Counted from the first letter of the stretch, positions 1,230 through 56,704 are shown. The stretch: DNA of 64,000 bases from an uncultured delta proteobacterium (GCA_963696385.1 CAVOKF010000007.1:288001-352000); one strand, 5' to 3'. Notes: a model not told the origin generated them from the sequence alone. Translations and numbers: made by a program.

Positions 1230-2357
1230 ATGGGTCTTCCGCCGCGGGCCAGGAAACTGAGGTTTCGAGCCTGGCTCGTCCTGCTGCTCGTGGGGTGCGA
1301 GCGCGACGGCGTCGTACTCGGGCTCGTCGACGCCTTTCCGGACGCGGCGACCGCGGGCGAACCGATGGAAGCCTCCGCACTTTCCGACAGCGACGGCGGC
1401 GAGACCAACGACAGTGGCGAGACCAACGACGGCGGCGCCCCCAGCTGCAACGGGGGCACGGCCGGAACGACCGCCTGCGGCGCCGCGGGCGACAACTGCT
1501 GCACGAGCATCGACGTGAGCGCAGGCACGTTCGACCGCGCCTACACGAACGCGGGGAACGGGGCCACCGGGTTGGCGAATCCCGCGACCTTGAGTGAATT
1601 TCGATTGGACAAGTACGACGTGACCGTAGGGCGATTCCGTCTCTTCGTCCGCGCGTGGACGGCGGGATTCACGCCGCCGCCGGCTTCGGGCAAGCACACC
1701 CATCTGAACGACGGAAGGGGTCTCGCCAACGTCGCCGCGGCGGGGATGTTTGAACCGGGATGGGCGGCCGACGACGACGCGAACGTCGCACCGACGACCA
1801 CCAACCTCGGCTGCGATCCGGCCGACGCAACCTGGACCGACGAGCCCGTGGGCAACGAGGATTTGCCCATCACGTGCGCCAACTGGTACGAAGCGTACGC
1901 GTTCTGCATTTGGGACGGCGGCTTTCTCCCGAGCGAGGCCGAATGGGAATATGCGGCCGCCGGGGGAAGCCAGCAGCGCGAATACCCCTGGGGCAGTGCG
2001 GCGCCAGGGACCGCCAGCCAGTACGCCATCTATGGCTGCTATTACCCCAACGGCTCCGGGGCTTGCCAGCCCACGTCCGTCAATATCGCACCCGTGGGAA
2101 CGGCGGCGCTCGGTGCAGGACTCTGGGGCCAACTCGATCTGACCGGCGAGGTCTATCAGTGGACTCTCGACACGTTCGCCGATTACGTGGACCCCTGTAA
2201 GGATTGCGCATCGCTCTCCGCCACACTGCCCGACCGGGTGCGCCGCGGCGGCGCTTTCGGTTACGACGAAACGGCGCTCACGCCGTCGCTCCGGTCCCAC
2301 ATCGCGCCCACGCACCGCGACGGCAACTTTGGCTTTCGCTGCGCCCGGGTGCCCTGA
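1230..2357 (+). CDS. Formylglycine-generating-enzyme (FGE-sulfatase/SUMF1) domain lipoprotein
   Basis: Lipobox LLVGC; motifs FRLDKYDVTVGRF, LPSEAEWEYAA, DLTGEVYQW, GFRCAR. ATG at 1230 chosen within ORF 1197..2357. Confidence 0.9.
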   Translation: MGLPPRARKLRFRAWLVLLLVGCERDGVVLGLVDAFPDAATAGEPMEASALSDSDGGETNDSGETNDGGAPSCNGGTAGTTACGAAGDNCCTSIDVSAGTFDRAYTNAGNGATGLANPATLSEFRLDKYDVTVGRFRLFVRAWTAGFTPPPASGKHTHLNDGRGLANVAAAGMFEPGWAADDDANVAPTTTNLGCDPADATWTDEPVGNEDLPITCANWYEAYAFCIWDGGFLPSEAEWEYAAAGGSQQREYPWGSAAPGTASQYAIYGCYYPNGSGACQPTSVNIAPVGTAALGAGLWGQLDLTGEVYQWTLDTFADYVDPCKDCASLSATLPDRVRRGGAFGYDETALTPSLRSHIAPTHRDGNFGFRCARVP

Positions 2358-2464
2358 TTCGCTCCGCGTTCCGCGTTCCGCCGGCCCGCAACGGTCGCAA
2401 GGTCGGTCCAAGTCGACACGCCGACCCGCGCGATCGCGCCCTTGAGCCAGGCTAACGTACGGTC

Positions 2465-3316
2465 GTGGATCGGTCGCCTGTCGTCGAATCCCTTCGTCCT
2501 GCCGCGGGTCTCGCCTCTCATGCGCTCGGGGTCGGCCTGAGGGCACCCCACTACACCTACGTCTTCGAACAGGAGCCGGTCGTCGATTACTTCGAAATGA
2601 TCAGCGACAATTTTCTTGGCTCTGCGCGCACGCCGCGACGAATGCTCGAGCGCGTGCGCGCGCGCTACCCGGTCGTGCTTCACGGTGTCGGCTTGAACCT
2701 GCTCGGGCACACCCCGCTCGATGAGAAATATCTCGATGCCCTCTGCCGGCTCGCCGACGATGTCGACGCGCCGTTCGTCACGGACCATCTCTGCTGGACG
2801 GGTGCCCAGGGCGTGACTCATCATGACCTGTTGCCGACGCCGTACGCGCGCGATCTCGTCGAATTCGCGGCCGAGCGCGCGTGCCACGTGCAGCGCCGGC
2901 TAGGTCGTCCGTTCGGGCTCGAGAATCTTTCGAGCTACGTCGCGTTCCGGAGCTCCACGCTCACGGAATGGGATTTCTATTCCGCGGTCGTCCGTGAAGC
3001 CGGCTGCTGGTCGTTACTCGACGTGAACAACATTTACGTCTCCAGCCAGAACCACGGATTCGACCCGGACACCTATCTTGCGGCGGTCGACTTTTCACGC
3101 GTGCTCGAGGTCCATGTCGCCGGGCACACGCGCGAGCCGAGCGGGACGTTGGTCGACACGCACGACCATGGCGTCGCGCAGGCCGTCTGGGCTCTCTACT
3201 CGCGCGCTTGGAAGAGGGGCGGCCCGTTTCCCACGCTCATCGAATGGGACGCGCATATTCCGCCCATGACCGAGGTGTTGACCGAACTCGCGAAGGCGAC
3301 GGAGGCGCGACGATGA
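2465..3316 (+). CDS. DUF692 family multinuclear non-heme iron oxidase (MNIO; BufB/ChrH/MbnB-like)
   Basis: GVGLRAPHY N-terminus; metal-ligand motifs VLHGVGL, TDHLCW, GLENLSSY, LLDVNNIYV, EVHVAGH, VDTHD, LIEWD. Confidence 0.93.
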   Translation: MDRSPVVESLRPAAGLASHALGVGLRAPHYTYVFEQEPVVDYFEMISDNFLGSARTPRRMLERVRARYPVVLHGVGLNLLGHTPLDEKYLDALCRLADDVDAPFVTDHLCWTGAQGVTHHDLLPTPYARDLVEFAAERACHVQRRLGRPFGLENLSSYVAFRSSTLTEWDFYSAVVREAGCWSLLDVNNIYVSSQNHGFDPDTYLAAVDFSRVLEVHVAGHTREPSGTLVDTHDHGVAQAVWALYSRAWKRGGPFPTLIEWDAHIPPMTEVLTELAKATEARR

Positions 3317-4173
3317 CGCGTGAGGCCCCACGCTGGCTTGCCGATTTTCAAGCCCGCTTTGGTGACGTCATTCGCACACCCCTGGACCGGACGGGCGGAA
3401 CGCTCGCCGCGACGACGGCGGCCTACGACCCGGGTATCGTGGTCGATACTCTCGATAGCCCGACGGGCACGGGGGCCGATCGACTTGCGGTGTACAATCG
3501 CCAGTACTGGTTTCGGCTCTTCGACGTCGTTCAGCGCGCATTCCCGTTGACGTCGCGCCTGGTGGGTTATTGGGTATTCAACGACTACGTGGCGCGCTAC
3601 CTTCGCGTGCGGCTGCCGCGCGGCTGGGAACTCGATTGCGTGGCCGACGGGTTCGCCGCGTTTGTCGAGGACACGTTCGAGTGCGAAGACCCGGCCAAGC
3701 GGTGTGCGTGGGTCGAAGCCGCTTGCATCGACGACGCGTGGCGCACCGTCTTTCGGGCCCCCGAGATCCCGCCGTTTCGCCCGTCGGCCACTCACGCAAG
3801 CCGGCTGCTCGACGCCCGCCTCGTGCCCTCTCCGGCATGGAGGATCGTCCGGGAGCATCGTCCCCTTCTGGAGCTTCGCAAACGGCTCCTCCATGATTCG
3901 AGCCAAGATTGCGTCGAGGTGCCCCCGCTTTTGCCACGTGCACGTTGGTGGGCGCTCGTTCGTAGGGACCAGGGCATCTTGCACATTTCGCTCGAGCCTC
4001 GCGAAGCCGAGCTCTTGGTGCTCCTCGGCGAGACATCCGTCCGTGATGCCCTCGCACGAGTCGAGCGTGAGTGCGCACCCGAAGAGCGCGCACTTCTGCC
4101 CGCCCAGGCGCGCGGCTGGCTCGCGCGGAGCGTAGAGCTCGACTTCTGGAGCGGAGTCCGCGGCGACGGCTGA
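3313..4173 (+). CDS. DUF2063 family MNIO partner protein (BufC/HvfC-like)
   Basis: ATGA overlap with the DUF692 stop; motif DRLAVYNRQYWFRL..V...FP....LVG typical of DUF692 partners. Confidence 0.85.
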   Translation: MTREAPRWLADFQARFGDVIRTPLDRTGGTLAATTAAYDPGIVVDTLDSPTGTGADRLAVYNRQYWFRLFDVVQRAFPLTSRLVGYWVFNDYVARYLRVRLPRGWELDCVADGFAAFVEDTFECEDPAKRCAWVEAACIDDAWRTVFRAPEIPPFRPSATHASRLLDARLVPSPAWRIVREHRPLLELRKRLLHDSSQDCVEVPPLLPRARWWALVRRDQGILHISLEPREAELLVLLGETSVRDALARVERECAPEERALLPAQARGWLARSVELDFWSGVRGDG

Positions 4174-4178
4174 CCCGC

Positions 4179-4589
4179 TCAGTCGCAGACGACGCAGCTA
4201 TACCCGGCGCAGGTGTTGGTCGCTCGACACGTGTGCTCGCTAAGCGTCTGGGTTTCGAGATCGTACGACATCCCACGGCACGAATTGGACCCGCCGCAGT
4301 GCGGTTGTATCTCCAGGATGCCGCTCACCGCATCGCACTGCGCCATAAACTCGCTTTCCGTCATGTTCGCTACGATCGTCGCCGACGTAACGCTCGGATC
4401 CGGCGACACTCCTGCGTCGCAAGCGATCGCCGGAATCGGCGTGTCGCCGTTCACGCTCGAAGCACCGGAATCGGAGCCTGCGCTGTTCGCGCTGCACCGA
4501 GAAGTCGCGACGCACAGAAGGCCACCGAGCGCCGCCGAAAGCAGCGCATGACTCGCCGGATGGTCAGTTTCGTCGGGCCACCAAGACAT
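4179..4589 (-). CDS. Cys-rich secreted protein, candidate MNIO precursor/substrate
   Basis: 136 aa with 10 Cys; hydrophobic leader ALLSAALGGLLC; two C-x3-N-x-C-x-G motifs (CGGSNSCRG, CRATNTCAG); its stop lies 5 bp from the DUF2063 stop. Confidence 0.75.
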   Translation of the reverse strand: MSWWPDETDHPASHALLSAALGGLLCVATSRCSANSAGSDSGASSVNGDTPIPAIACDAGVSPDPSVTSATIVANMTESEFMAQCDAVSGILEIQPHCGGSNSCRGMSYDLETQTLSEHTCRATNTCAGYSCVVCD

Positions 4590-4874
4590 GCTTTGGCCAC
4601 CATCCTAGACTCGCCGTATCCACAAATCCATCCTGAGCGCGTTTCGGCGGACACTGCGGGAAACGGCTGGCACCGGCCGCCGACGGGCCCCGGCCGGTGG
4701 CCAAGGCCACGCGCATGACGGACGTCATTTCCCGGCCCCACGCCGTCAGCCGCGCGAGCCATTCCGTTCGTCGGGACATCGCTGGGAGGGGGCCGCCCGG
4801 ACCGCCGGTATGCGGCGCAACCGCAAGCGCCTCCACGGCTCATGGCCAACCGGATCGTCTTCGGTAGACTGGCT

Positions 4875-6338
4875 TCACCGAAAATCTTGGAAACGTTTGA
4901 TATCTAAAATAATCGCGAATTGAATCAGCCAAACCACGGCCAGTGCGATGCGACCGCGAGACGGAAACAGCCGCTGCAGCGTCAGGCTCGCGACCAAACA
5001 AGCGGGCTGGGCCAGGAAAAGCCAGAGGCGCGCCGTCTCGGCTTTCGTGCGCCCGAACCATGCCAGCAACGCAATGGTCGTTGCCAGGGCTATGGCTACC
5101 ATCAGTGCGGTGGGTCGGCGCGAGCGGACCCGATCCTCAAGTCCCAGCACGGCGCCCACCATCAAGAGGACGGCCAGCGGTGCACCGATCCAGATTGCGA
5201 ATTCGAGGACATTCACCCATGCAAAATGCTGGATTTCATCGATTGTTCCCGTCCATCCTTTCCAGGCGACGTGGGCGCGAATCGCTACGTCGTATCGATG
5301 CCGGACATCGTAACCGAACATCGTGCTTGCCGCGGCCCAGCTCGTCCCCACTCCGACCGCTGCCGCGGCGCACATCCGAAGCGACGAAACGAAGATCGAA
5401 CGGCTGCGCATGGGGCGAGCGACAGCGCCCAAGATGATGCACGCGACGACCAGAGGCGTAGCCGCGATCAGACCGAACGAACAGAACGCCGCCAAGTAAC
5501 CGAGAATGCCGGAGAGGAACCCCATTCGAAGGTCGTCCCGCAGCGCGGCCCATGCCCCACAGGCCATGGCCGCGTTCACGAGCAAGGGGAAGAGAACCTG
5601 GTCGGTGTGCATGGTAATCAGTAGGAACGACGGAACCGCGGTCGATAGCGCACATGCCCAGATCGCACGTTCGACATCGGCGATGGCGCGGCCGAGGATG
5701 AACAGCGGGACAAGCGATAGCATCGAGAAGCCCGGCCAGGTGAACGTAGCGAATGTGGCAAACCACTCCAATCGTTCGTCCGGATCGGAAAATGGCAAAA
5801 GCGATCGACCGATGCGCTCTGTCAGCACGTAAAAGAGAAGCGTGCCCGGTGGCTTCGTGCGTTCGAACGGGCCCAATTGCCCACTCGATACGAGAGCCTC
5901 ATAGCGGTGCAGCACGTCGTGCATCGTCACACCGGACGCGGCGGTCCGTGCGAACTCCGAGTGCCCAGCGTGGAGTACGCGATCCCGGATCGCCAACAGT
6001 CCGCGACCTTCGATCAGCGCGAAACCGACGAGCATCCCGAGACCTGCTGCGGCCAGGACGCCGACGCGCCACCAAGGATCCGCCCGGTTGCGCACGACGG
6101 CCGCGAGCACGGCGAGCGCGGACAACGCGAGGACGCACCAGGCGCTCATGGGCCCGATAGGGCGTGCGATCGGTAAGTAAAACCAGCCCTCGATACTCTG
6201 AAACCAAGGCGCGCGTAGCGAGAGCATAAAGGCCTCGCAGGCCCCGGCGCCGCAAATGCCAAAGGCCACAGCCGCGGGACCTGCACGGGTCAACGATGAG
6301 TGCGACACGCCGAGAGGGTACGGCAAAAGCCAGTCCAT
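4875..6338 (-). CDS. Polytopic membrane protein, GT-C (PMT/ArnT-like) glycosyltransferase-like
   Basis: Many TM segments; TKPPGTLLFY loop and ETARLWLF motif resemble GT-C-like proteins. Start uncertain (ORF extends to 6464). Confidence 0.6.
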   Translation of the reverse strand: MDWLLPYPLGVSHSSLTRAGPAAVAFGICGAGACEAFMLSLRAPWFQSIEGWFYLPIARPIGPMSAWCVLALSALAVLAAVVRNRADPWWRVGVLAAAGLGMLVGFALIEGRGLLAIRDRVLHAGHSEFARTAASGVTMHDVLHRYEALVSSGQLGPFERTKPPGTLLFYVLTERIGRSLLPFSDPDERLEWFATFATFTWPGFSMLSLVPLFILGRAIADVERAIWACALSTAVPSFLLITMHTDQVLFPLLVNAAMACGAWAALRDDLRMGFLSGILGYLAAFCSFGLIAATPLVVACIILGAVARPMRSRSIFVSSLRMCAAAAVGVGTSWAAASTMFGYDVRHRYDVAIRAHVAWKGWTGTIDEIQHFAWVNVLEFAIWIGAPLAVLLMVGAVLGLEDRVRSRRPTALMVAIALATTIALLAWFGRTKAETARLWLFLAQPACLVASLTLQRLFPSRGRIALAVVWLIQFAIILDIKRFQDFR

Positions 6339-6510
6339 GCGAGTTGGACGCAGGCCATGACCGTGGGCGCAGCCCTTCGTGGAAAGGGAACGAGCCCACT
6401 CGGCTACCGTGTCGCACGCTACCTGCACGCTCGGCTCCATTTCGGAGTCATGCACGCTCGGCACGTGGCGGAGTCGATCCCGCGGGTGATCCGCGGACGG
6501 CGCGCGTGGA

Positions 6511-8286
6511 TCAAGGATCGGGCGATTCGCTACGCCAACGGATCGAGCGCACGATCATGCCGAGCAACCGGTTATCCGGTTTGCCCTCCAAGACAGCGGG
6601 GCTTGCGGCGTCCGGGTGTTGCAGGCAGAGGACGTTCGCCTCTCGCATCACGCCGTCCGGCACGACGAATCGGTAGACGTCGAACGCCCGCTTTCGAATC
6701 GACAGATGGGCAATCTCCCGATCGTTCATCGATACGATCAGCCTCTGCTCCGGCAATTTTCCAGGGTAGAGATACGCGCCCAGATCCATCTCGAGGATGC
6801 CCGATCGGACTTGCGGCACTCGGAAACGGACCACGGAATCGCCCCGTCCCTTGGCCCAACGAAAGTCCCGCTCTCCGTCCGCCCACCCGGCCCCGAGATA
6901 CGGGTCGGCTTGCGCCGTTCCGAGAGCAAGCCCGTCGGCGGGCATCGGCGGGAATGGCCCCTCGGGCTTCAGGAATGCCGCAGCAAACTGAGGGTGCCGC
7001 CAGCTCCACAGGCGCTCGGGAGCGAGGTCGACGTTGTTGGGGGTCACATTCCAATTGTTGGCGTCCCACGAGAACGCGCCGATGCCGTTCATGACGATGC
7101 TCGCGACGCACAGCAGGGCGGCCACGGCGTCGAGGGCGACATCGGCGGGGCGTCTCCCTCGAAACAGGCTGCGGCGCGAAGCGTCGACGGCGAGGACGCC
7201 CAGAAGCAGAAACCAAGGCACCAGACTGGTCGTCAGGCGTGCCCCGTAGGAATGACCCCCCCACCAATGCCCGAACCCCGCGAGCATGAAAATGTGGCCA
7301 CCGATGACAAATGCGGCCAGTGCGGCCAGGGCACGAAAGCGGACGTGACGCCAGCAACGGATGAGGGTGAGCCCGATCGCGACAACGGCCGGCACGTAAA
7401 CGAACAAGCCGCGGCTAGGGCTGATGAGATTCCCGATCAGAGCTCCGCGCGGACCGGGAAAATGCAAGCGGCCGGTGGCAAAATAAGCTGGAACAAGCGT
7501 GTGGAAATGAGACCAAGAATAATAGAAAAATACCGACAACCAGAAGCCAAGAACGGCCACGTACGTCCAAATGGACTTCCGATCGATGCGAACGAGGTAG
7601 AGAATCGTGCCGACGAGGACGAGCGAGTTGGTCGGCCGCACCAGGTACGCGAGCGACTGCAGCGTCGCCAAAAGCGGCACGTGAAGAGACGTCGACTTCA
7701 CCCGAGAGCGCAAAAGCAGCAAGACGGCCAGGCCGACGAGCACGATGCCCCACGTATCGGACCACATCGAACGGGAGGCCGTGCTGAAGACCTGAGTGCC
7801 AAAGGTCGACACGCACGCGGCCACGAGGCTCCAGCCGGCGGGCAAAAGCAGCCGACTGGTGGCATACGCGAGCGCGGCGAATGCGGCCATGAGAAGCCCG
7901 GCCAACTTCCGATCCAAATCGAGCTCGCTCGCCGAATCGTACGATCCGTCCGGCGCAACGACGGACACCCCGCGAAAGTGCATCGCCGCGACAAACGGAA
8001 CGGAGAGCACCGAGCTGGCCGGCGGAAAGAAGTAATAGTCATGTCCGTTGGCATGTTCGATTCGGTAGTCGTGTTCGGGCAGCCCGTAGCGGTCCAGGGC
8101 GAAATCCCCGTGGCGAATCAAATTTTCCGCCAGAAGCATCGTGTAGCGCGAGTCCCCTGCCTGCTGGACGGGGGCGCAACGAAGCACGGAGAGGGTCAGA
8201 GCAAAAATCAGGGCCGCAAAAAAAACGTCTCGGCGCAGGGGCCCATTTCGGTTCACCGTGGGGCTCGAGTCCGTGGAGATCGCCAT
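6511..8286 (-). CDS. Polytopic membrane protein, GT-C-like, with soluble C-terminal beta domain
   Basis: GDSRYTML acidic first loop, YYFFP, LISPSRGLFVYVP, WWGGHSYGARL; C-terminal GAGWADGERDFRW...DNRLLGM domain. Confidence 0.65.
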   Translation of the reverse strand: MAISTDSSPTVNRNGPLRRDVFFAALIFALTLSVLRCAPVQQAGDSRYTMLLAENLIRHGDFALDRYGLPEHDYRIEHANGHDYYFFPPASSVLSVPFVAAMHFRGVSVVAPDGSYDSASELDLDRKLAGLLMAAFAALAYATSRLLLPAGWSLVAACVSTFGTQVFSTASRSMWSDTWGIVLVGLAVLLLLRSRVKSTSLHVPLLATLQSLAYLVRPTNSLVLVGTILYLVRIDRKSIWTYVAVLGFWLSVFFYYSWSHFHTLVPAYFATGRLHFPGPRGALIGNLISPSRGLFVYVPAVVAIGLTLIRCWRHVRFRALAALAAFVIGGHIFMLAGFGHWWGGHSYGARLTTSLVPWFLLLGVLAVDASRRSLFRGRRPADVALDAVAALLCVASIVMNGIGAFSWDANNWNVTPNNVDLAPERLWSWRHPQFAAAFLKPEGPFPPMPADGLALGTAQADPYLGAGWADGERDFRWAKGRGDSVVRFRVPQVRSGILEMDLGAYLYPGKLPEQRLIVSMNDREIAHLSIRKRAFDVYRFVVPDGVMREANVLCLQHPDAASPAVLEGKPDNRLLGMIVRSIRWRSESPDP

Positions 8287-8472
8287 GGGACGGCGCCTAC
8301 GATCGTCCTCGGAGACGGCGAAAGCAAACCGAGTGGAGACACGGGCGCTGTACGCCGGCACCCTCCGTAAATAATGGAACGGGACTTGGCGCGCCGATGG
8401 ACGTTTCGTCGATACGGAAGAGCGCGATGACGCAGAGCGCGACGACAGGTCCGTAACTCACGGACGGCGCTT

Positions 8473-8961
8473 TTAGTGACGGATGTGTGGATGGGCGCCC
8501 GTGTGACGCTCGACTTCGACGGCCCACCGCGTTCCCGGGTACTCGTTCACCATCACCTCCGCTGCCCCGCGCGCCTCGGACAGCTTTCCCTCGCGCGCAA
8601 GCGACTTGATTTCGATCATGGCGCGTTCGGCCGAATCGGGACTCTTGGGAAATCGCCGGTCGCCATCGCGCGCCAAATCGAGCGCCTGCGCGGGATCGGA
8701 ATCCTCCATCGCTCGCAAGCGCTGCATGAGCGACGCTTCGCTGGAAGGCGGCGCTGCCGGAGGCGCGGGGGCCAGCGACCCCGTCGGGGTCGACCCCCAG
8801 GCGGAAACGATCGGCGCCGGCTCACTCTCCTCCGCTGCCGACGCGGGTTGGGCCTCGGCGATCGGAGCAGGGGGCGCACGCGGCAGGCGCCGCAAAAAAA
8901 ACAGGAGACCGAGCATCAACCCACAAGCCAGGACGATGCGGGTCACCGCCTTCTTCGGCAC
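8473..8961 (-). CDS. Single-TM protein with Pro-rich linker and TPR-like helical C-terminal domain
   Basis: N-terminal TM, then SDPAQALDLARDGDRRFP..AERAMIEIKSLAREGK..EAR..YP. Starts 10 bp after the GH5 stop. Confidence 0.7.
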   Translation of the reverse strand: MPKKAVTRIVLACGLMLGLLFFLRRLPRAPPAPIAEAQPASAAEESEPAPIVSAWGSTPTGSLAPAPPAAPPSSEASLMQRLRAMEDSDPAQALDLARDGDRRFPKSPDSAERAMIEIKSLAREGKLSEARGAAEVMVNEYPGTRWAVEVERHTGAHPHIRH

Positions 8962-8971
8962 GCCTCATCCC

Positions 8972-10456
8972 TCATTGGCAAAGCACGGCCGATTTGTCGG
9001 CGTTGTAGAGGTTTTGGATGGCCGTTTCCATGAGCGTTCCCCAGGTCGTCTGCTCGCTGTTGGTCGGATAATCCGCAGGGCCGGGATTGTCCGCATTGGC
9101 GTACTGCCACGCCCAGGCGCCCTTGTATCCTTCGGTGTAAAGCGTCGTATACAGGTTTGCGGAAGGAATGACGGTGCCCGTGCCGTTCGAATACGTATCA
9201 ATCGCCCAGAATTCGCCAATCACAACCGGTTTTCCGTCGGTCAGCCCCCAATGCGACACTTCATTCTGGAACGGCGAGACCTTCTCGGCCCCACCGGGGG
9301 TGCCCCAGTTGTCGTAATAATGAACCTGGTAGAAGTCGAGCGTGCCCTTGGATTTGCCTCCTGCCGCGAGGAGTGCGGCATCCGAGTAATAATTCGTTCC
9401 GACGACGTCGGAGTTCGCGAGAAACGTCCAGGCGCCGTTGGTCACGAGAGCGTTGGGGTCGGCGGTGTGAATGGCGTCGGCGAACCAGTTGACGCAGGTT
9501 TGAATGACGCTTTCGTCGACTTCCTCGCCCCCGGCGGCCGTCGTCCAGCCGTTTTGCGTCGTCATGCCTTCCGGCTCATTGAAGACTTCCCACGAATAAA
9601 GACCGTGATAGCCTTTGAGGGCGGTCACGAGCGGGGTGAGCACGTTCGTGATGTAGGCCTGACGATCCGTAGAGTTGGTCAGAAGATTCATGTTATTGGC
9701 GATGGGGATGGCGCTGTTGCCGCCGGTGAGCATGTCGAAGGACCAAATACTGATGTCGACGGCCACGTTCGCGGCATAGGCCGCGTCGAGAATGCTCTTC
9801 ACGCCAGCGATGTCCGTTTGAGAAATGGGGGTCGCTACGCCGTTCGTGTAGCCGGGAGTGACCGACCCGTCCGTGTGAAGCCACCAGCGAATGACCCGCC
9901 CGCCGGCGTTGTACACGTTCGTAAAGAGGGTCGTGAATTTGGCGATATCGGGATTGGGAATGTCGCTCGCATAGTTGATCCATGCGACGTTCACGCCGCT
10001 CGCAAACTGCGGCCTGCAGGCCGTGCCGCTGCCTGCGTCGCCTGGCGGAGCCCCGGACGACGCTGCCGAGGAGCTCGAACTGGAGGCGGAGCCGCTCGAA
10101 TGGCTGGAGCTGCTCGAGCCCGTGCTGTTCGAACCTTCGGAACTGCTCGAGCCCGTGCTGTTCGAACCTTCGGAACTGCTCGAGCCCGTGCTGTTCGAAC
10201 TTTCGGAACTGCTCGAACTGGAGCCGTTCGAGGGAGAACCAGAACCGCTCGAGCTGGAGCTCGTCGCGTTGGGGTTCGTACCCCCTGTCGAAGAGGACTC
10301 TGAGGATCCGTTCAAGGCTGAGACACTCGATTGCGACGCGCTCGTACTCGACGACGATTCCGAAGGCAGACCGTTCTCGTTCCCCGGCGACGGGGAACTG
10401 CACGCTGCGACGACGATGCCCCCGGTCAGGAAACCCATTCTGAGATAAGCGCGCAC
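8972..10456 (-). CDS. Glycoside hydrolase family 5 lipoprotein (mannanase-like) with Ser-rich linker
   Basis: Lipobox VAAC; SGVNVAW, WEVFNEPEG (acid/base), DFYQVHYY, KPVVIGEF (nucleophile), GAWAW. Confidence 0.88.
   Translation of the reverse strand: MRAYLRMGFLTGGIVVAACSSPSPGNENGLPSESSSSTSASQSSVSALNGSSESSSTGGTNPNATSSSSSGSGSPSNGSSSSSSESSNSTGSSSSEGSNSTGSSSSEGSNSTGSSSSSHSSGSASSSSSSAASSGAPPGDAGSGTACRPQFASGVNVAWINYASDIPNPDIAKFTTLFTNVYNAGGRVIRWWLHTDGSVTPGYTNGVATPISQTDIAGVKSILDAAYAANVAVDISIWSFDMLTGGNSAIPIANNMNLLTNSTDRQAYITNVLTPLVTALKGYHGLYSWEVFNEPEGMTTQNGWTTAAGGEEVDESVIQTCVNWFADAIHTADPNALVTNGAWTFLANSDVVGTNYYSDAALLAAGGKSKGTLDFYQVHYYDNWGTPGGAEKVSPFQNEVSHWGLTDGKPVVIGEFWAIDTYSNGTGTVIPSANLYTTLYTEGYKGAWAWQYANADNPGPADYPTNSEQTTWGTLMETAIQNLYNADKSAVLCQ
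10110..10216. repeat. 3x 33-bp coding tandem repeat in the GH5 linker (SSSSEGSNSTG)
   Basis: Unit ctgctcgagcccgtgctgttcgaaccttcggaa at 10110, 10143 and 10176 (one mismatch), plus a partial copy. Confidence 0.9.
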
Positions 10457-10640
10457 TGGAAAGCTCTCTTCTCGGACCCTGTCGACTCCCGCGCACATGC
10501 GTGTTCGCGACCGCCCGGCAGCGCGTAGACTAGCAGCGCGCTCATCGGCCGCTCGAGAGCATTTTGGTTCCGTCCCGCCGGTTCTCGTCCGGTTCTTGTG
10601 GGGACGGATTAATACGCGGATTTCGAAGCGTGCCGTCGGC

Positions 10641-12566
10641 TTAGAATCGGGCGACCCAGCCGAACGTCGCGCCGCCCGCCGTGGGAGCGATCGTCGGCTG
10701 CAAATGCAGCATCCCGGGGTCCCGCTCCCAGACCGTCAAGAGCCGTTGAAGGGGCGTTTCGACCCAATAGGTGGCCGCGATGACGGCCGCGCCCAGCAGC
10801 ACTCCGGTGCCGCCGAACAGGCGGCCGTCGAGTCGCGCGTTGGGGCTCGTGGCCGTCGCCTCGTTGTAGACCCAGCCCGAGGCCGATCCCAGCATGACCA
10901 GGGCGCCGATTCCGCGCGTGATCCAGAGCCGTCGCGCTTCGCGCACAGAAAGCTCGTGGAACCGCTCCTCGGCCACGGCAAACGCCCGCGCGTAGTCCAT
11001 TCCCGTTCCCAGCGCGGCGCGGTAGTCGCGTGCCGCGATCTCGCCCCCCCAGGGTTCCAACAAGTCGTAGAGGCCCGCCCCGAGATACAGCGCGCCGACG
11101 CCAGCGGTCACTGCGCCCCAAACGTTGGCCGACGACCGCGTAAACCCCGGCAGCCTGTCTCCGAAGGACAGCTCCGAGCCCCCGGCGACGCCGAGGACGG
11201 CCCCTGCGCCCAGAAAGACCAGGCCCGAGAGCCTCCGTTGGCCGCGCTCCGCGCTCTCGATCTGACCGAGCAAGAGATCCATCCGCTCGGCGTCTTCCTG
11301 CGACACACCGTAAACAGGAGGTGGCGCGGCGGTCGCTTCCGCCACGTACGAGGCGACGGCACGCGGGCCGAACGGGCGGGTGAAGAGCGTCTGGAAGATC
11401 TCCGCCGGTCCTCGGATGGCTCCGCGCGCGCGGATTGGTTGGAGCGACGCGAGCGTCAGCTCCGTCGCCGCCTCGGGAACGGCGAAGACCTGCAGGGCCG
11501 ATCCGCCGCCGGACGCGGCGCGCTCGACGACTGCGCCGTCGGTCCACTCATCCGGAAGCGTCAGGACGAGTGGAAGCCCCGCTTCCTCGTTGGCGTCGAG
11601 AAGGGGCATGGCGTCTTTGTCGAGCCACCGAACGCGCATCGGCGCGGCGTCGGAGAGACGGAACGTCCGCGCTCCGGTGCGGCCGCGGGCGGCGAGGATC
11701 GGTTGATCGTCGTGACCGCCCGGTCCCCGCGAGAACACGTGCGGACGCATGTTGGGGTTCCGAACGTCCGCGGTCGCGGTGGCGACGAATGCCGCGAGCT
11801 CCAGGTAGCTTACGACGCCGTCGCCGTTCGCGTCGGCGGCGCCCAGCAAGCCGGACCGTACGACGTGGCTGAAGACCCCCGACTGGATCTCGGACCACTC
11901 GAACGAAACCCCCTCGGCGCTCGTCGAGAGGAACACACCCACGTTCGGGAGTCGAGCCGCGAGCGACCGCGCCGCGTCTTCGGGCGTGGCGTAGTAACGG
12001 CCGCCCGGCCGTCGTTCGCCGAGCATGAAGAACGAGTTGCAGCTGTCCAAAATGACGTGCCCTCGTGAGAACGGAATCGCGCGGAGCCATTGCTCCAGAT
12101 CCGCAGACGTGAAGCGCGCATCGGCCAGTTCGATGAAGCCCATGCCTTCATCGGCGTCGCCGTGACCGGCAAACACGAAGTACACGTCGGTCTCACTGCC
12201 GGCGTTGGCGGCGGCCCGAACGCGCTCCGCCAGCTCGCGTCCGACGCGCAGCAGCTCGGCACGCGTGGGGGCCACGGCCCACGCATGCGCTTCGGGGAAA
12301 AGCCGCGCGGTGTCGTCGTCGAAGTCGGCCAGCAGCGTGACATTCTGCGGGGCGACCGTTCGGAAAATGGCGGAACATTTCGCCGCATCGTCGTCTGCGT
12401 AGTGCAGATCGGGGCGCCGATGGCCCAGGCTGCGGTTGTTGCCGATGACGACCGCGAACGCCTCGTGGCGTGCCGGCGCGTCCGCGCGGCTCGGGATCGG
12501 CGTCAGCAGAGCCGCGAGGGCGGCCAGAGCGGCGAGAAGAGAGCCCAGCAGTCGCCGACCGTTCAT
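10641..12566 (-). CDS. Secreted caspase-family (peptidase C14-like) protein with hydrophobic C-terminal region
   Basis: Signal peptide; FAVVIGNN, LHYADDDA, FAGHGD (His), ILDSCNS (Cys), DANGDGVVSY; C-terminal hydrophobic helices ending FGWVARF. Confidence 0.88.
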   Translation of the reverse strand: MNGRRLLGSLLAALAALAALLTPIPSRADAPARHEAFAVVIGNNRSLGHRRPDLHYADDDAAKCSAIFRTVAPQNVTLLADFDDDTARLFPEAHAWAVAPTRAELLRVGRELAERVRAAANAGSETDVYFVFAGHGDADEGMGFIELADARFTSADLEQWLRAIPFSRGHVILDSCNSFFMLGERRPGGRYYATPEDAARSLAARLPNVGVFLSTSAEGVSFEWSEIQSGVFSHVVRSGLLGAADANGDGVVSYLELAAFVATATADVRNPNMRPHVFSRGPGGHDDQPILAARGRTGARTFRLSDAAPMRVRWLDKDAMPLLDANEEAGLPLVLTLPDEWTDGAVVERAASGGGSALQVFAVPEAATELTLASLQPIRARGAIRGPAEIFQTLFTRPFGPRAVASYVAEATAAPPPVYGVSQEDAERMDLLLGQIESAERGQRRLSGLVFLGAGAVLGVAGGSELSFGDRLPGFTRSSANVWGAVTAGVGALYLGAGLYDLLEPWGGEIAARDYRAALGTGMDYARAFAVAEERFHELSVREARRLWITRGIGALVMLGSASGWVYNEATATSPNARLDGRLFGGTGVLLGAAVIAATYWVETPLQRLLTVWERDPGMLHLQPTIAPTAGGATFGWVARF

Positions 12567-13414
12567 GGTGCGGCTCCGTCGGCGTGGCGCACCTCGACCA
12601 TCGTCTCGCGCACTTCTGCCCCGGGAAGCCGGCGGGCCATGCGAGCCGCACTGAGCTCGGTGCCCTCGAGCGACTCGACGTCGGACACATGCGCGGGGGC
12701 CGGCGTGATCACGGCGACGATGCGCAGGGGGCCTGGGCTTACGTCCTCGAGGACAACCGTCGTGTCGAGGACCCGCTCACCGAGCGAAGGCGGCAGCGTC
12801 GTCGAAGCGGGGTTGTCCTCGGAACGCGTGAACCTCGGCGAAATCCAGTGGATGGCGCCCCGCGCGTCGACCGCGAAAAGCAGAAGGAAGGCCGGGATCT
12901 CCCCCAGGTTGCGGAAGCCGGCGGTGAGGGGCGTCGTGTCGTCGAACGTCGCCCCGGCCCCCAGAGGACGAAGGTTTCCCCGGGCCGTATAGGGCTGCAC
13001 GCCGACATCGCGTCCGATCGTGGCTTGAACCGGCCCCCCGCGAGGCTGCCAGGTTTCCGTCGTCCGCGGAACGCGCAGTCCCACGTAAGCCAGGAGGACG
13101 ACTCCGCAAGCGGCCACCGAACCTGCCGCGACGAACCGTCCGAAGGGCCCCGGCCGCGCTCGGTTTTCCGTCGTCGTCGCCCTGTGACGCTCCAGACGAT
13201 CCACGCGTTCCATCACCGCACGGATGTGCGCTTGAACATCGAAGTCCTGGACCGTGGCCGCTTTGATGTCGCCCAGGGCGGTTCGCAGCGCCCGGTCCTG
13301 CTCCCGGCAACGGGGGCACATGGCGACATGCGCCTCGACGCGCCGGGTCTCTTCCAACGAAAGCGAGCTATCGACAAAGCGCACGAATTGGTCGCGGGTC
13401 GGACAGGGCATCAT
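12563..13414 (-). CDS. Anti-sigma factor: zinc-finger (zf-HC2), TM, extracytoplasmic DUF4384-like domain
   Basis: CP...HVAMCPRC (C-x-H-xxx-C-xx-C); TM; WQPRGG; LLFAVDARGAIHWISP; ATGA overlaps on both sides. Confidence 0.85.
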   Translation of the reverse strand: MMPCPTRDQFVRFVDSSLSLEETRRVEAHVAMCPRCREQDRALRTALGDIKAATVQDFDVQAHIRAVMERVDRLERHRATTTENRARPGPFGRFVAAGSVAACGVVLLAYVGLRVPRTTETWQPRGGPVQATIGRDVGVQPYTARGNLRPLGAGATFDDTTPLTAGFRNLGEIPAFLLLFAVDARGAIHWISPRFTRSEDNPASTTLPPSLGERVLDTTVVLEDVSPGPLRIVAVITPAPAHVSDVESLEGTELSAARMARRLPGAEVRETMVEVRHADGAAP

Positions 13415-13998
13415 CGATGTTCCTCCAAAAGATCCCGAAGCAAACGCAGCCCGTGGTGAACCCGCGAGCGCAGCGTCGACTCGCCGATGCGCAAGATGGC
13501 GGCCATCTCGTCGTATCGGAGCTCCTGCCCGTACCGCAGGACCAACGCCTCGCGCATCCTCTCGGGAAGCCGAGAGAGCGCGTGGTGGACGCGGTGCCTT
13601 CTCTCCTCCACGAGGAGCTGGTCGATCTGTTTGGCAGTGGGCGGTTCGGCGGCCTCCGATGCGGCCCGCATCCGGTGCCGCTGCACCACGCCACGCATCC
13701 TCGAATGGTTGCGACAGCGATTGCGCGCCGCCGTAATCAGCCAGACGATGAACTTGCCCTCGGCCCGATACTGCGATCGCTGCGCCCAGATCGTGACCCA
13801 GGTCTCTTGCGCCATTTCGGCGCCCCACTCGCCGTCGCCGACGAACCTGGAGCAGACTTGCACCAGGCGCTCGGCGTGGCGTTCGACGAGCACGGCGAAC
13901 GCTTCGCGCACTCCGGCCTGCGCGAGCGTCATCAGTTCGTCATCGTCTCGATCGGGCAAGGGGCCACGCTCGAGCGGCACCAGATGCGGAGAAGACAT
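13411..13998 (-). CDS. ECF RNA polymerase sigma factor
   Basis: DDELM..AQAG..EAF..LVERH, AQETW, WLITAARNRC, LPERMREALVLRY, SRVHHGL. Confidence 0.93.
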   Translation of the reverse strand: MSSPHLVPLERGPLPDRDDDELMTLAQAGVREAFAVLVERHAERLVQVCSRFVGDGEWGAEMAQETWVTIWAQRSQYRAEGKFIVWLITAARNRCRNHSRMRGVVQRHRMRAASEAAEPPTAKQIDQLLVEERRHRVHHALSRLPERMREALVLRYGQELRYDEMAAILRIGESTLRSRVHHGLRLLRDLLEEHR

Positions 13999-54152: not shown

Positions 54153-55214
54153 CTACGGATCCAGCCCCGACCGCGTCGGATACTTTCTTGCGCGCCAAAC
54201 GGGAAGCCCCTCGTCGAGGACCGTCACCTTGGTGAACCCCTTCGAGAGTAGCTTTTGGGCGAGCTGGCGCGACTCAGCATGGGGGCACGCGCAATAACAG
54301 ACGAGCCACGCGTCCTTGGGCAGCGACGAGAAGTAAGGGTCGGGCTCGTAAAACGGAACGCTGACGGCGCCCGCAATGTGTTCGGCTACGTAATCGGACG
54401 GAGCGCGCGCATCGAGCAGCGCCATTCGCGCGCCGCGATCGAGTTGGGCCTTGACCACGTCCACGGGCGTCGTGGCTCCCTTGCCGGCGAAACCGATGGG
54501 CTCGGGACCTCGCGGATGGATGGGGACCGGACCGAGCGGAAGGGGGGGCGTCTTTGCCGGCGTCGATGGCGGAGAGACACCGCTTTGCGGCTGGTCCTTT
54601 CGGAGGTAGGCGACAACGTCCTCCACGCCACGATCTCCGAGCAGCGTTCCGAACGCGGGCATCGGTGTACCCGGACGACCGCGTAGAATCGCGTACCGGA
54701 TGTAGCCGTTCGGCGCGATCGACAAGAAGTCGGGGCCGCCGATGTGAACACTCGGGCCTTCTGTGCCGTGTTCGCCATGGCAGCGTGCGCACTCGCGGCC
54801 GTAGAGCGCCGCTCCGATCGCGGCGTCGCCCGCGGGGGGGCGTTCATCGAGAGCGGCACGTGCGCCGCGGTCCCAGGTCCGGAGGAACGCGATGACCGCA
54901 TCGACGTCCGCCGGCGAAAGCGGCCCTCCGCGCGTCCGTCCCCAGGCCGACATGGTCGTCCCACGTCGGCCGAACGTGATCGCCGACCGCAGGTACGCGT
55001 CGGTCGCCGACGCCAGAAAGTCGGGGCGCGTGAGGGCGGGCGCCTGGTCGGCGGCGTACCCCTTTCCATCGCGCCCATGACAGACAACGCACATGCGATC
55101 GTACACGAGCCACCCGCGCTGCGGGGTATCGCTCGAGCGCGAGCGCGAGCAATGCACCGAAGCGCACGCCAGAAGCACAACCGCGGCGACTCCGGAACGC
55201 GGGCGCACGTGCAT
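54153..55214 (-). CDS. Di-heme cytochrome c + rhodanese fusion (probable lipoprotein)
   Basis: CVVCH and CARCH, each with GRxGTxM; LLDAR..SDY...HIAGAVSVP; YCACPH; LDEG...W. Confidence 0.88.
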   Translation of the reverse strand: MHVRPRSGVAAVVLLACASVHCSRSRSSDTPQRGWLVYDRMCVVCHGRDGKGYAADQAPALTRPDFLASATDAYLRSAITFGRRGTTMSAWGRTRGGPLSPADVDAVIAFLRTWDRGARAALDERPPAGDAAIGAALYGRECARCHGEHGTEGPSVHIGGPDFLSIAPNGYIRYAILRGRPGTPMPAFGTLLGDRGVEDVVAYLRKDQPQSGVSPPSTPAKTPPLPLGPVPIHPRGPEPIGFAGKGATTPVDVVKAQLDRGARMALLDARAPSDYVAEHIAGAVSVPFYEPDPYFSSLPKDAWLVCYCACPHAESRQLAQKLLSKGFTKVTVLDEGLPVWRARKYPTRSGLDP

Positions 55215-55303
55215 CTCGGATGGCGCGGACCATAGCGCAGGTTCGTCCCGCAACTTGGCCGAAAGCGTCTTGAAACCATCGGAGCGTACGGTCTCGTTCC
55301 AGA

Positions 55304-56704
55304 ATGGCAATCAGCCTCACCGTCCCGGAACGAACCGGTCGCGTGGTGGCGGATGACGTCGAGGTAAAAATCCTCGGCGCGTGCAGCCATCCGTCGCCGC
55401 TCAACCATAGGCTTGCGCGCTCAGCCATCCATTACGTCGGCAAGGCCGACCGCGTCCCCATCGACGACCACATCTCGAAAATCGGAGAGTATGGCGACGA
55501 TTTGGCCCGTATTCCGGCTTTCGAGTTGGCGGGCCCCCGGGACAGGATTTTTTTCGATCCGGAGCGACTTCGCTGCGGGATCGTCACCTGCGGCGGCCTG
55601 TGTCCCGGGATCAACAACGTGATCCGCGGCCTCGTCCTCGAGCTCACGCACGGGTACGGGGTCGAGCAAATCTTCGGCTTTCGCTACGGATACGAAGGCC
55701 TCACCCAGGGATCGTCCGAGGAGCCCGTGCAGCTCACGCCTTCATTCGTCGCGGACATTCACCACGAGGGAGGGACCGCGCTCGGGACTTCGCGCGGAGG
55801 TCAGGATCCGGTCGAGATGGTGCGGACCCTCGAGCGGATGGGCATCGGCGTCCTTTTCGTCATCGGCGGCGATGGAACCGTGCGAGGCGCCATGACGATC
55901 GTGTCCGAGGTCGAGCAGCGGAAACTTGCGATCGGCGTCGTGGGCATCCCAAAGACCATCGACAACGACATCCATTTCATCGATCGAAGTTTCGGGTTCG
56001 AGACGGCATTCTCTTCGGCCGTCGACGTGATTCGCAGCGCACACGTCGAGGCGCAGGGCGCGCGCAACGGCATCGGCGTCGTCAAGCTGATGGGACGCCA
56101 TTCCGGCTTCATTGCGTGCCATGCCGCGATCGCGTCCACGGACGTGGACGCCGTGCTCATCCCCGAGGTGGCCGTTCGTCTCGAAGGGGATCTGGGGCTC
56201 TTCGATTTTCTCGAGCGGCGCCTACGACGCAATGCGCACGCGGTCATCGTCGTCGCCGAGGGAGCCGGACAGGACCTCTGCGACGAGGACGCAGGGCGAC
56301 GGACGGACCCGAGCGGCAACGTCCGGCTGGGCGACGTCGGCGTCGTCTTGAAGAACCGGATCGTGGAGCATTTCCGCGACAGGCGCGTCGATGCAACACT
56401 CAAATACATCGACCCGAGCTATCACATTCGCAGCGTCCCTGCGTCGCCCAACGACAGCGTCTATTGCTGGAACATGGCACGAAATGCCGTGCATGCGGCG
56501 CTCGCCGGCAACACCGAGGTTCTCATTGGACGTTGGCATGGACGGTTCGTTCACGTGCCCATGCCGCTCGCGACCCGCTTCCGCAAGCGCGTCGATGTGA
56601 CGGGCGACCTCTGGATGTCGGTCGTCGAATCGACTGGACAACCAGTGTCGTGGCAGGAGCAGGGCGAGACGGTCAGCCCCCGTTCGAGAGTGGATGCTGC
56701 GTGA
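55304..56704 (+). CDS. pfkA: ATP-dependent 6-phosphofructokinase
   Basis: TCGGLCPG, GTSRG, GGDG, PKTIDND, KLMGRHSGF, YIDPSY. Confidence 0.93.
   Translation: MAISLTVPERTGRVVADDVEVKILGACSHPSPLNHRLARSAIHYVGKADRVPIDDHISKIGEYGDDLARIPAFELAGPRDRIFFDPERLRCGIVTCGGLCPGINNVIRGLVLELTHGYGVEQIFGFRYGYEGLTQGSSEEPVQLTPSFVADIHHEGGTALGTSRGGQDPVEMVRTLERMGIGVLFVIGGDGTVRGAMTIVSEVEQRKLAIGVVGIPKTIDNDIHFIDRSFGFETAFSSAVDVIRSAHVEAQGARNGIGVVKLMGRHSGFIACHAAIASTDVDAVLIPEVAVRLEGDLGLFDFLERRLRRNAHAVIVVAEGAGQDLCDEDAGRRTDPSGNVRLGDVGVVLKNRIVEHFRDRRVDATLKYIDPSYHIRSVPASPNDSVYCWNMARNAVHAALAGNTEVLIGRWHGRFVHVPMPLATRFRKRVDVTGDLWMSVVESTGQPVSWQEQGETVSPRSRVDAA

Follow-up and report, generated by a model that had tools for sequence, protein, structure and literature searches.

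The unit considered here lies at positions 2465..4589 of a 64,000-nt stretch of DNA from an uncultured delta proteobacterium (the window, by which we mean the whole stretch that was analysed). It consists of an MNIO (DUF692) gene, a gene for a DUF2063 partner and, on the opposite strand, a gene for a small cysteine-rich protein (Table 1). As the initial annotation had stated, the two plus-strand genes are translationally coupled, the start of DUF2063 overlapping the stop of the MNIO gene as ATGA, and no gene for a small precursor stands directly upstream: the gap between the stop of the upstream gene (2357) and the MNIO start is only 107 bp, and the sole plus-strand open reading frame (ORF) ending in it (2204-2455) is free of Cys. 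The third gene is placed tail-to-tail with the pair, its stop falling 5 bp beyond the DUF2063 end (4173). Its product contains 10 Cys (positions 26, 32, 57, 85, 98, 104, 121, 127, 132 and 135) and both motifs that had drawn attention to it, HCGGSNSCRG and HTCRATNTCAG, and it is acidic rather than Lys-rich (0 Lys, 15 Asp plus Glu, pI 4.2). We consider it probable that the three genes represent a minimal MNIO maturation unit, of which the minus-strand protein would be the dedicated, copper-binding substrate. Sequence comparison makes it highly probable that this protein is a substrate of the MNIO; that the product is a copper-binding thiooxazole is suggested by analogy and is rather less assured, if still likely.

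The linkage of the two gene types persists far beyond the window. Of 304 candidates, 200 are homologues of the precursor ORF at E<=0.001. The 86 loci fetched via the precursor, a redundant set of 26 GTDB and 60 metagenome loci, include 69 in which the precursor is convergent with the MNIO pair, three divergent ones, two with the precursor on the same strand after the partner, and one in canonical order; eight have no partner match and three were not classed by the script. Five of the eight end within 300 nt of a contig end and another (L068) at 517 nt, L086 is weak, and L039 is truly solitary. The three unclassed loci are a convergent one (L085), one with 3 kb devoid of an MNIO (L084) and a weak match (L026). 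Restricted to GTDB, the count is 22 convergent, two divergent, one at a contig end and one weak match. For the reverse test, 301 genomes of the order were searched with the precursor alignment and, separately, with the enzyme (E<=1e-84, a threshold of our own choice). The precursor family was found in 49 genomes and the MNIO type in 42; all 42 carry the family, and the MNIO type is present in none of the 252 family-negative genomes. A family member lies at most 5 kb from 41 of the 45 MNIO matches, in four layouts (29 convergent, seven canonical, three on the same strand after the pair, two divergent), and four have no member within 5 kb. In the seven genomes with a precursor only, G049, G141 and G149 have an adjacent MNIO of 48% identity, G197 has a truncated MNIO, G127 an adjacent partner, and G012 has a split MNIO with a frameshifted precursor nearby; in G136 none was found. 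The expected co-occurrence of homologues with DUF692 genes thus held. Convergence, taken at first as the mark of the system, is indeed the majority layout, but it does not define the family, as 16 of the 45 MNIO matches are arranged differently. The persistence of linkage through four gene orders is a stronger point than the counts.

Table 1. Features of the MNIO unit, in window coordinates.
Feature	Position	Strand	Remarks
MNIO (DUF692)	2465-3316	+	283 aa; PF05114 312.6 bits (cut-off 25); bufferin-maturase type
DUF2063 partner (PME type 1)	3313-4173	+	286 aa; PF09836 47 bits (cut-off 27.2)
Putative precursor	4179-4589	-	136 aa; leader/signal helix, putative lipobox Cys32, low-complexity linker, six-Cys domain
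Leader helix, residues 9-26	4512..4565	-	shared with BufA2 leaders; predicted partner-binding segment
Cys32, putative lipidation site	4494..4496	-	invariant in 27/27 relatives; preceding residue Arg here
Folded six-Cys domain, residues 62-136	4182..4406	-	C85, C98, C104, C121, C127, C132 invariant; C57, C135 optional
Repeat 1, C98-x5-C104-x-G	4272..4298	-	aligns to BufA2 Cys I-II
Repeat 2, C121-x5-C127-x-G-x-x-C132	4194..4229	-	aligns to BufA2 Cys IV-V
-10-like box, 6 nt before MNIO start codon	2453..2458	+	putative leaderless-type promoter
-10-like box, 12 nt before precursor start codon	4602..4607	-	putative own promoter

A leader-like, Cys-containing ORF upstream of the MNIO was found in none of the 38 convergent loci examined, and in 78 non-redundant loci no neighbour recurs apart from kinases; neither DoxX nor an ECF sigma factor does. 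The stops of the convergent genes abut unusually closely: the stop-to-stop gap is at most 35 nt in 20 of the 22 GTDB convergent loci (median 3.5), against 28% with a median near 105 in a crude control from the own genome. Seven loci (L018, L022, L024, L008, L015, L045 and L126) have two or three tandem precursor paralogues of differing linker length facing one MNIO-partner pair. At L105 (G011:C20) the whole cassette is duplicated in inverted orientation with one MNIO copy frameshifted, which could be an assembly artefact.

A profile of the precursor core retrieves 224 clusters at 50% identity, and the named records of the family come from Polyangiaceae, Labilithrix, Byssovorax and other Myxococcota metagenome-assembled genomes. 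The core contains six Cys (C85, C98, C104, C121, C127 and C132). Of the 84 complete, dereplicated members in the fetched loci 83 have it, and in a set of 48 diverse members these residues do not vary. C57 and C135 occur together in 48 of the 71 stand-alone forms that possess the core, C57 alone in 20, neither in three, and C135 alone in none. The AlphaFold2 model of the precursor (mean pLDDT, the predicted local distance difference test, 68.6) has a disordered linker and a folded block over residues 61-136 (pLDDT 70-95), in agreement with the earlier remark that the motifs are embedded in a folded-looking domain. Foldseek gave no match to this model at E<=0.001, VIA-align reached a best Z of 3.6, and the best Atlas matches are unnamed Myxococcota clusters (scores 0.82 and 0.75); no solved relative of BufA2 was found at E<=0.5, and for ten homologues that are long or repeated the cluster names were uninformative. 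These searches with a predicted structure do not amount to a demonstration of a new fold. Cys32 is preceded by Ala, Gly or Ser in 80 of the 84 members, and lipidation at this residue would probably anchor the precursor to the membrane; the lipid anchor considered in the initial annotation fits the family, whereas the Arg of the window copy is atypical. Nine homologues (P0123, P0125, P0135, P0197, P0207, P0216, P0228, P0245 and P0255) are lipoproteins with two to four tandem six-Cys domains, Lys-rich signals and Ser-rich linkers, and their second repeat is nearer to BufA2. C104 is lost in the variants L111, L170, P0173, P0177, P0194, P0210 and P0235.

The leader is of the bufferin type. Across the 84 members, L16 is conserved in 99%, A19 in 95%, and A20 and G23 in 100%; mean identity over the leader (L16, A19, A20, G23, L24) is 0.61, compared with 0.22 over the linker, and the n-region is not basic. 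The profile match to the leaders of myxobacterial BufA2 has a score of 23.7 (probability 86.9; 0/100 column shuffles). In six frames of the host genome (6.9 Mb), the leader motif followed by Cys has three matches, the two BufA2 precursors and the window precursor; the motif was composed with these leaders in view, and only the absence of other matches constitutes a test. When precursor, MNIO and partner are modelled as three chains, the leader docks on DUF2063 with a value of 0.67, and the best of three controls remains at 0.00. Of 157 solved pairs 116 attained the mark, as did 2 of 215 mismatched ones; these frequencies apply only roughly here. The model runs share at least 23% of contacts, and the partner has a pLDDT of at least 39. 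The confident contacts connect precursor residues 9-26 with residues 156-166 and 243-275, in the C-terminal part of the partner. This modelled interface would fit a preliminary statement in the accessible text of PMC12452194 that the signal peptide belongs to the BufB-BufC recognition sequence.

The enzyme shows a similar affinity to the bufferin maturases. Among five MNIO models the MNIO scores best with NF050167 for BufB (308.7, cut-off 310), while the ChrH model gives 33.5 of 600, and residues H73, H108, E153, D186, N189, H217, D231, H233 and E260, presumably the iron ligands, are invariant or nearly so in 27 relatives. The partners match PF09836 in 27 of 27 relatives, and in 11 of 11, all above the cut-off. 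In a careful tree of 41 rows, which excludes three long-branch rows and includes samples of the other convergent rows (12 of 39) and of the outgroup (12 of 26), a 100/99 branch splits 29 family-type MNIOs from the BufA2-linked and other MNIOs; trees of 85 and 82 rows concur. Rows of high identity had been picked by similarity, and those of 48-54% identity came through the precursor; the latter, linked MNIOs fall on the family side, and their distance from the query is similar to that of the outgroup. The deepest family-side branches under midpoint rooting are canonical-order loci, mostly cytochrome c fusions. We infer that fusion and canonical order are ancestral, a notion backed by the six members found outside the order, all of them fusions, and that the window form may be a derived, heme-less, convergent version of an older cytochrome c fusion. 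The correlation between enzyme and precursor distances (rho 0.45, 0/2000) is confounded by kinship, and we did not count it as a sign of co-evolution. The family and this enzyme branch appear to represent a precursor-enzyme pair of their own. Linkage, the bufferin-type leader, the modelled interface and the dedicated MNIO branch all speak for the original assignment of the minus-strand protein as the substrate.

It is very likely that the family works like a bufferin in its maturation; its Cys pattern and gene order would nevertheless place it outside BufA2. Both have a BufB-type MNIO with a DUF2063 partner, a homologous leader, six invariant Cys and two CxxxNxCxG repeats. The repeats match BufA2 in a profile-profile comparison (probability 96.4, E 1.1e-9), each in the register given in Table 1 and with N-x-C-x-G contexts that agree. 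The family differs from BufA2 in having no Cys III, in carrying the helix Cys before rather than after the repeats, in an extra Cys-bearing strand, an acidic core, a separate enzyme branch and the absence of DoxX, and about half of it is fused to cytochrome c. The bufABC order is strictly conserved according to the accessible text of PMC12452194, whereas the family is mostly convergent; the same text gives about 16% of BufA2 as predicted lipoproteins. A circular permutation from BufA2 is doubtful: the match of the helix segment to the BufA2 C-terminal segment is weak (score 14.0; 1 of 60 shuffles as high), and the order of elements does not fit a simple permutation. DUF2282 (Bufferin 1) does not match the precursor at E<=0.1, and the EGKCG repeats of oxazolins are absent from the precursor and the family alignments. 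DAG-RiPPs, lipidated products of MNIOs such as DybA and NedA, share a signal peptide with a conserved Cys and MNIO linkage (PMC13056109, accessible text), but the family has neither a CPxCGxG nor an EGKCG motif, and its lipidation is a prediction. Adjamnio-I overlaps in range (122-293 aa, 8-21 Cys; PMC12452194 Table 2) and differs, by its published description rather than by sequence alignment, in having no predicted signal peptides and PME type 2 partners, as far as that source's accessible part goes; the partners of the family match DUF2063 (PME type 1).

The central Cys of Caulobacter Buf2 are reported to carry -4.03 Da, with Cys I and VI likely forming a disulfide (10.1101/2024.03.18.585515). 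Because these central residues align with C104, C121 and C127 via BufA2, modification is predicted there; the status of C98 is uncertain. In the maturation that we propose, the DUF2063 partner would grip the leader helix (residues 9-26 in the model) and the cytoplasmic MNIO would oxidise cysteines in both CxxxNxCxG repeats (C104, C121 and C127 being the likeliest) to 5-thiooxazoles at about -4 Da each, if the chemistry is that of bufferins. The modified precursor would then be exported by Sec and probably lipidated at Cys32, one or two structural disulfides would close among C57, C85, C98, C132 and C135, and the exported protein would bind copper in the cell envelope.

Several observations weigh against this reading. 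The precursor reaches only 17.6 bits on the BufA2 model NF050166, weak against a cut-off of 60; this model matches 34 of 44 family members at E<=0.1 (best 2.7e-5), and the host's canonical-looking BufA2s also score below the cut-off (43.4 and 35.8 bits). By profile alignment and secondary structure BufA2 Cys III has no counterpart and is replaced by a beta hairpin. No confident contact in the three-chain model involves the MNIO, and the success of the model may partly mirror likeness, because related MNIO-partner complexes have already been solved. The linkage counts depend on the enzyme threshold that we chose, and they overstate independence because the genomes are kin. Solitary precursor copies exist (L039, L107, L111, L113 and L114), and G136, which is 97% complete, has a C104-less variant and no MNIO above 42% identity. 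The window MNIO could also serve an orphan BufA2 of the host at C7:862445-862705 (+), around which 8 kb contain no MNIO. As to copper, a YtkA-like neighbour is found among stand-alone loci only at L052 and L054, MbnP has no match in the four genomes of the window's genus, and no copper gene lies near the window form. Because its genus has no MbnP match, a copper role of the window copy rests on homology of family and enzyme.

The window alone does not reveal that cytochrome c fusions make up about half of the family. Among the best 150 of the 224 clusters, 68 are stand-alone, 66 have a CxxCH domain after the core, three have other long tails and 13 a variant core. In these 66 fusions the CxxCH domain mostly lies 18-19 residues past the last core Cys, and 52 have a Met motif downstream; of 12 fusions tested with PF00034, six score above the cut-off and 11 match at E<=0.1. 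Fusion genes are mostly upstream of the MNIO. A search of 301 genomes of the phylum yielded six members outside the order, all fusions, five of which stand directly upstream of MNIO and partner in the canonical order. MbnP and YtkA have copper roles. Within the stretches fetched for 16 fusion loci, MbnP is present in five, DUF1775 in two and a YtkA-like gene in four (one called by Pfam, three by BLAST), 10 loci in all. Of the 49 family-positive genomes, 35 contain MbnP, with 56 matches in total; by eye, six of these matches lie no farther than about 7 kb from a fusion gene, and none beside a stand-alone form. YcnI/DUF1775 is described as a copper-binding domain in the accessible text of 10.1101/2021.06.11.448128. 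For Bufferin 1 (DUF2282), a few Buf1|Cytochrom_C and Buf1|Cytochrom_C|FGE-sulfatase fusions provide a precedent (PMC12452194, accessible text); heme fusion is rare there, whereas here it is a main form and is tied to MbnP, DUF1775 and YtkA-like genes. Six fusions (L101, L117 and L118, called by Pfam, and L169, L171 and L172, called by eye) carry additional repeats of PF11617 (Cu-binding_MopE-type) and an EF-hand-like insert in front of the core, and at seven loci (L090, L092, L093, L094, L100, L113 and L167) an unannotated operon of DUF3570, a DUF2271-like gene and a small CxxxxCH protein recurs by the fusions.

These fusions give rise to the alternative that survives best, which shares every step with the preferred one until the last. 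The modified site would be a redox cofactor, thiooxazole-bound copper exchanging electrons with the His/Met heme c, for example to reduce Cu(II) in uptake or loading, and the heme-less form would use a separate cytochrome. The abundance of CxxCH domains and Met motifs, the PF00034 scores and the fact that all members outside the order are fusions are consistent with this, as are neighbours that are uptake or trafficking genes (MbnP, DUF1775, YtkA-like, DUF3570) in place of the non-recurrent DoxX and ECF sigma factors. There are hints, then, that the modified cysteines may move electrons besides soaking up copper. However, no close homologue of the fused heme domain occurs as a separate protein in the host, and repeated loss of that domain suggests that the Cys domain works alone. 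The best match in the genome to the fused heme profile (E 2.2e-9) lies in the window itself at 54153-55310 (-), a di-heme cytochrome c with rhodanese that is probably generic. On balance it is possible, though we think it unlikely, that the family is an MNIO-matured heme-copper protein for copper uptake or loading rather than a metal sponge, with the window gene as its heme-less, inverted descendant.

Less likely again is that the protein is a substrate modified by other chemistry or for another metal than in bufferins, be it an oxazolone-thioamide, a cross-link or a non-copper site. The enzyme branch is long and apart from the BufA2-linked MNIOs, Cys III is absent, some variants have no C104, and the core is acidic and Lys-free. 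Nevertheless, the BufB score of 308.7 is far above that of the other MNIO models, the N-x-C-x-G contexts agree with BufA2, and the neighbours of the fusions point to copper. A shade more doubtful still, the protein might be a linked accessory lipoprotein, bound by the partner and left unmodified, its six Cys forming three disulfides or binding metal directly, while the enzyme modifies BufA2s elsewhere. A predicted folded domain with an even number of invariant Cys, the orphan BufA2 in the host, the lack of a confident MNIO contact in the model and the non-RiPP lipoproteins listed in bufferin clusters (PMC13056109, accessible text) would suit such a protein; however, bufferins are also folded and yet modified (10.1101/2024.03.18.585515, accessible text), both repeats have counterparts in BufA2 (Cys I-II and IV-V), two of five genomes (G124 and G034) carry the MNIO type with no BufA2 match, and a leader with about three times the conservation of the linker is difficult to account for unless it is recognised. 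That the protein is a chance neighbour of an orphan MNIO pair, as variable flanks and the richness of myxobacterial genomes in Cys-rich secreted proteins might suggest, is refuted by the 22 of 26 convergent GTDB loci and the 42 of 42 against 0 of 252 in the reverse test, with linkage seen in several families and in other classes, under four gene orders, and with a shared leader, and we give it next to no credence.

The preferred reading, a dedicated copper-binding substrate, assigns a precursor to an MNIO branch that would look orphan in the survey of PMC12452194, where thousands of MNIOs are without an assigned precursor. According to its accessible text, that survey drew its precursors solely from the genes that precede MNIOs and accepted signal-bearing ones only if shorter than 200 residues; because of these criteria, convergent forms and most signal-bearing fusions would have been outside its screen, and five taxon names searched for in its supplement file 1, as far as accessible, gave no match. 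PMC13056109 mined lipoproteins near MNIOs irrespective of order and has a 'hypothetical protein in bufferin BGC' (cluster IX), which is comparable with the family by description only and may already list it. In a search of the bufferin, MNIO and DUF692 literature, from which subscription papers were mostly outside, no title or abstract opening describes the family. The modelled leader-partner interface offers a concrete, testable candidate for how signal-peptide-bearing precursors might be held back and recognised, a question raised in the accessible text of PMC12452194. The cytochrome c fusion provides a natural heme reporter for redox work at MNIO-made copper sites, and a redox role, if true, would extend MNIO modifications from metal buffering to protein cofactors.

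The precursor had also been described as separately transcribed, and -10-like boxes at both units support this. Of 44 MNIO genes, 29 have a TAnnnT box 5-8 nt ahead of a start codon in frame, where 1.1 would be expected, and so do 23 of 68 stand-alone precursors, with 2.3 expected; the box is seen in 1 of 54 genes for DUF2063, which served as the control, and in none of eight fusions. The box of the window precursor, at 12 nt, is outside this tested range. Since such boxes occur at both, the two units likely have leaderless-type promoters of their own, and a separate promoter for each would permit changes of gene order. A full sigma-70 promoter scan gave no sites, an upstream k-mer search no regulator motif, and 2300-5000 contains no terminator. 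A shared RNA hairpin at the tail-to-tail junction is unsupported (mean z -0.7 against -0.04, 22 loci). Genome-wide in the host, TAnnnT boxes peak 6-9 nt before start codons, which suggests that leaderless mRNAs are frequent in this lineage.

The host genome (6.94 Mb, 96% complete) has two further MNIO loci, each with its own upstream precursor. One, at C5:986126-989048 (-), is a canonical bufferin-2 locus with BufA2, MNIO, a DUF2063-like partner, an ECF sigma factor and an anti-sigma-like gene (labels by eye); a DoxX-like ORF lies about 1.7 kb upstream on the other strand, likewise by eye. The other, at C3:616344-618597 (-), has a lipoprotein-like precursor of 154 aa with two ASCxAGxCG motifs about 90 residues apart, labelled EGKCG-like by eye, and its MNIO forms a long branch in the tree. 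The FGE-sulfatase upstream of the window unit was rejected as a member of it, being beside the cassette only in the near-identical L028 and L087 and in L167, and having 30 paralogues in the host genome. Farther from the unit, 8473-13998 (-) encodes a GH5 lipoprotein with Ser-rich repeats, an unannotated protein of 641 aa, an anti-sigma factor (zf-HC2) and an ECF sigma factor, with no sign of linkage to the MNIO unit. Upstream of the precursor, 4875-6464 (-) and 6511-8361 (-) encode two multi-pass membrane proteins that have no Pfam match and look by eye like membrane glycosyltransferases; the former gene is syntenic only in near-identical relatives.

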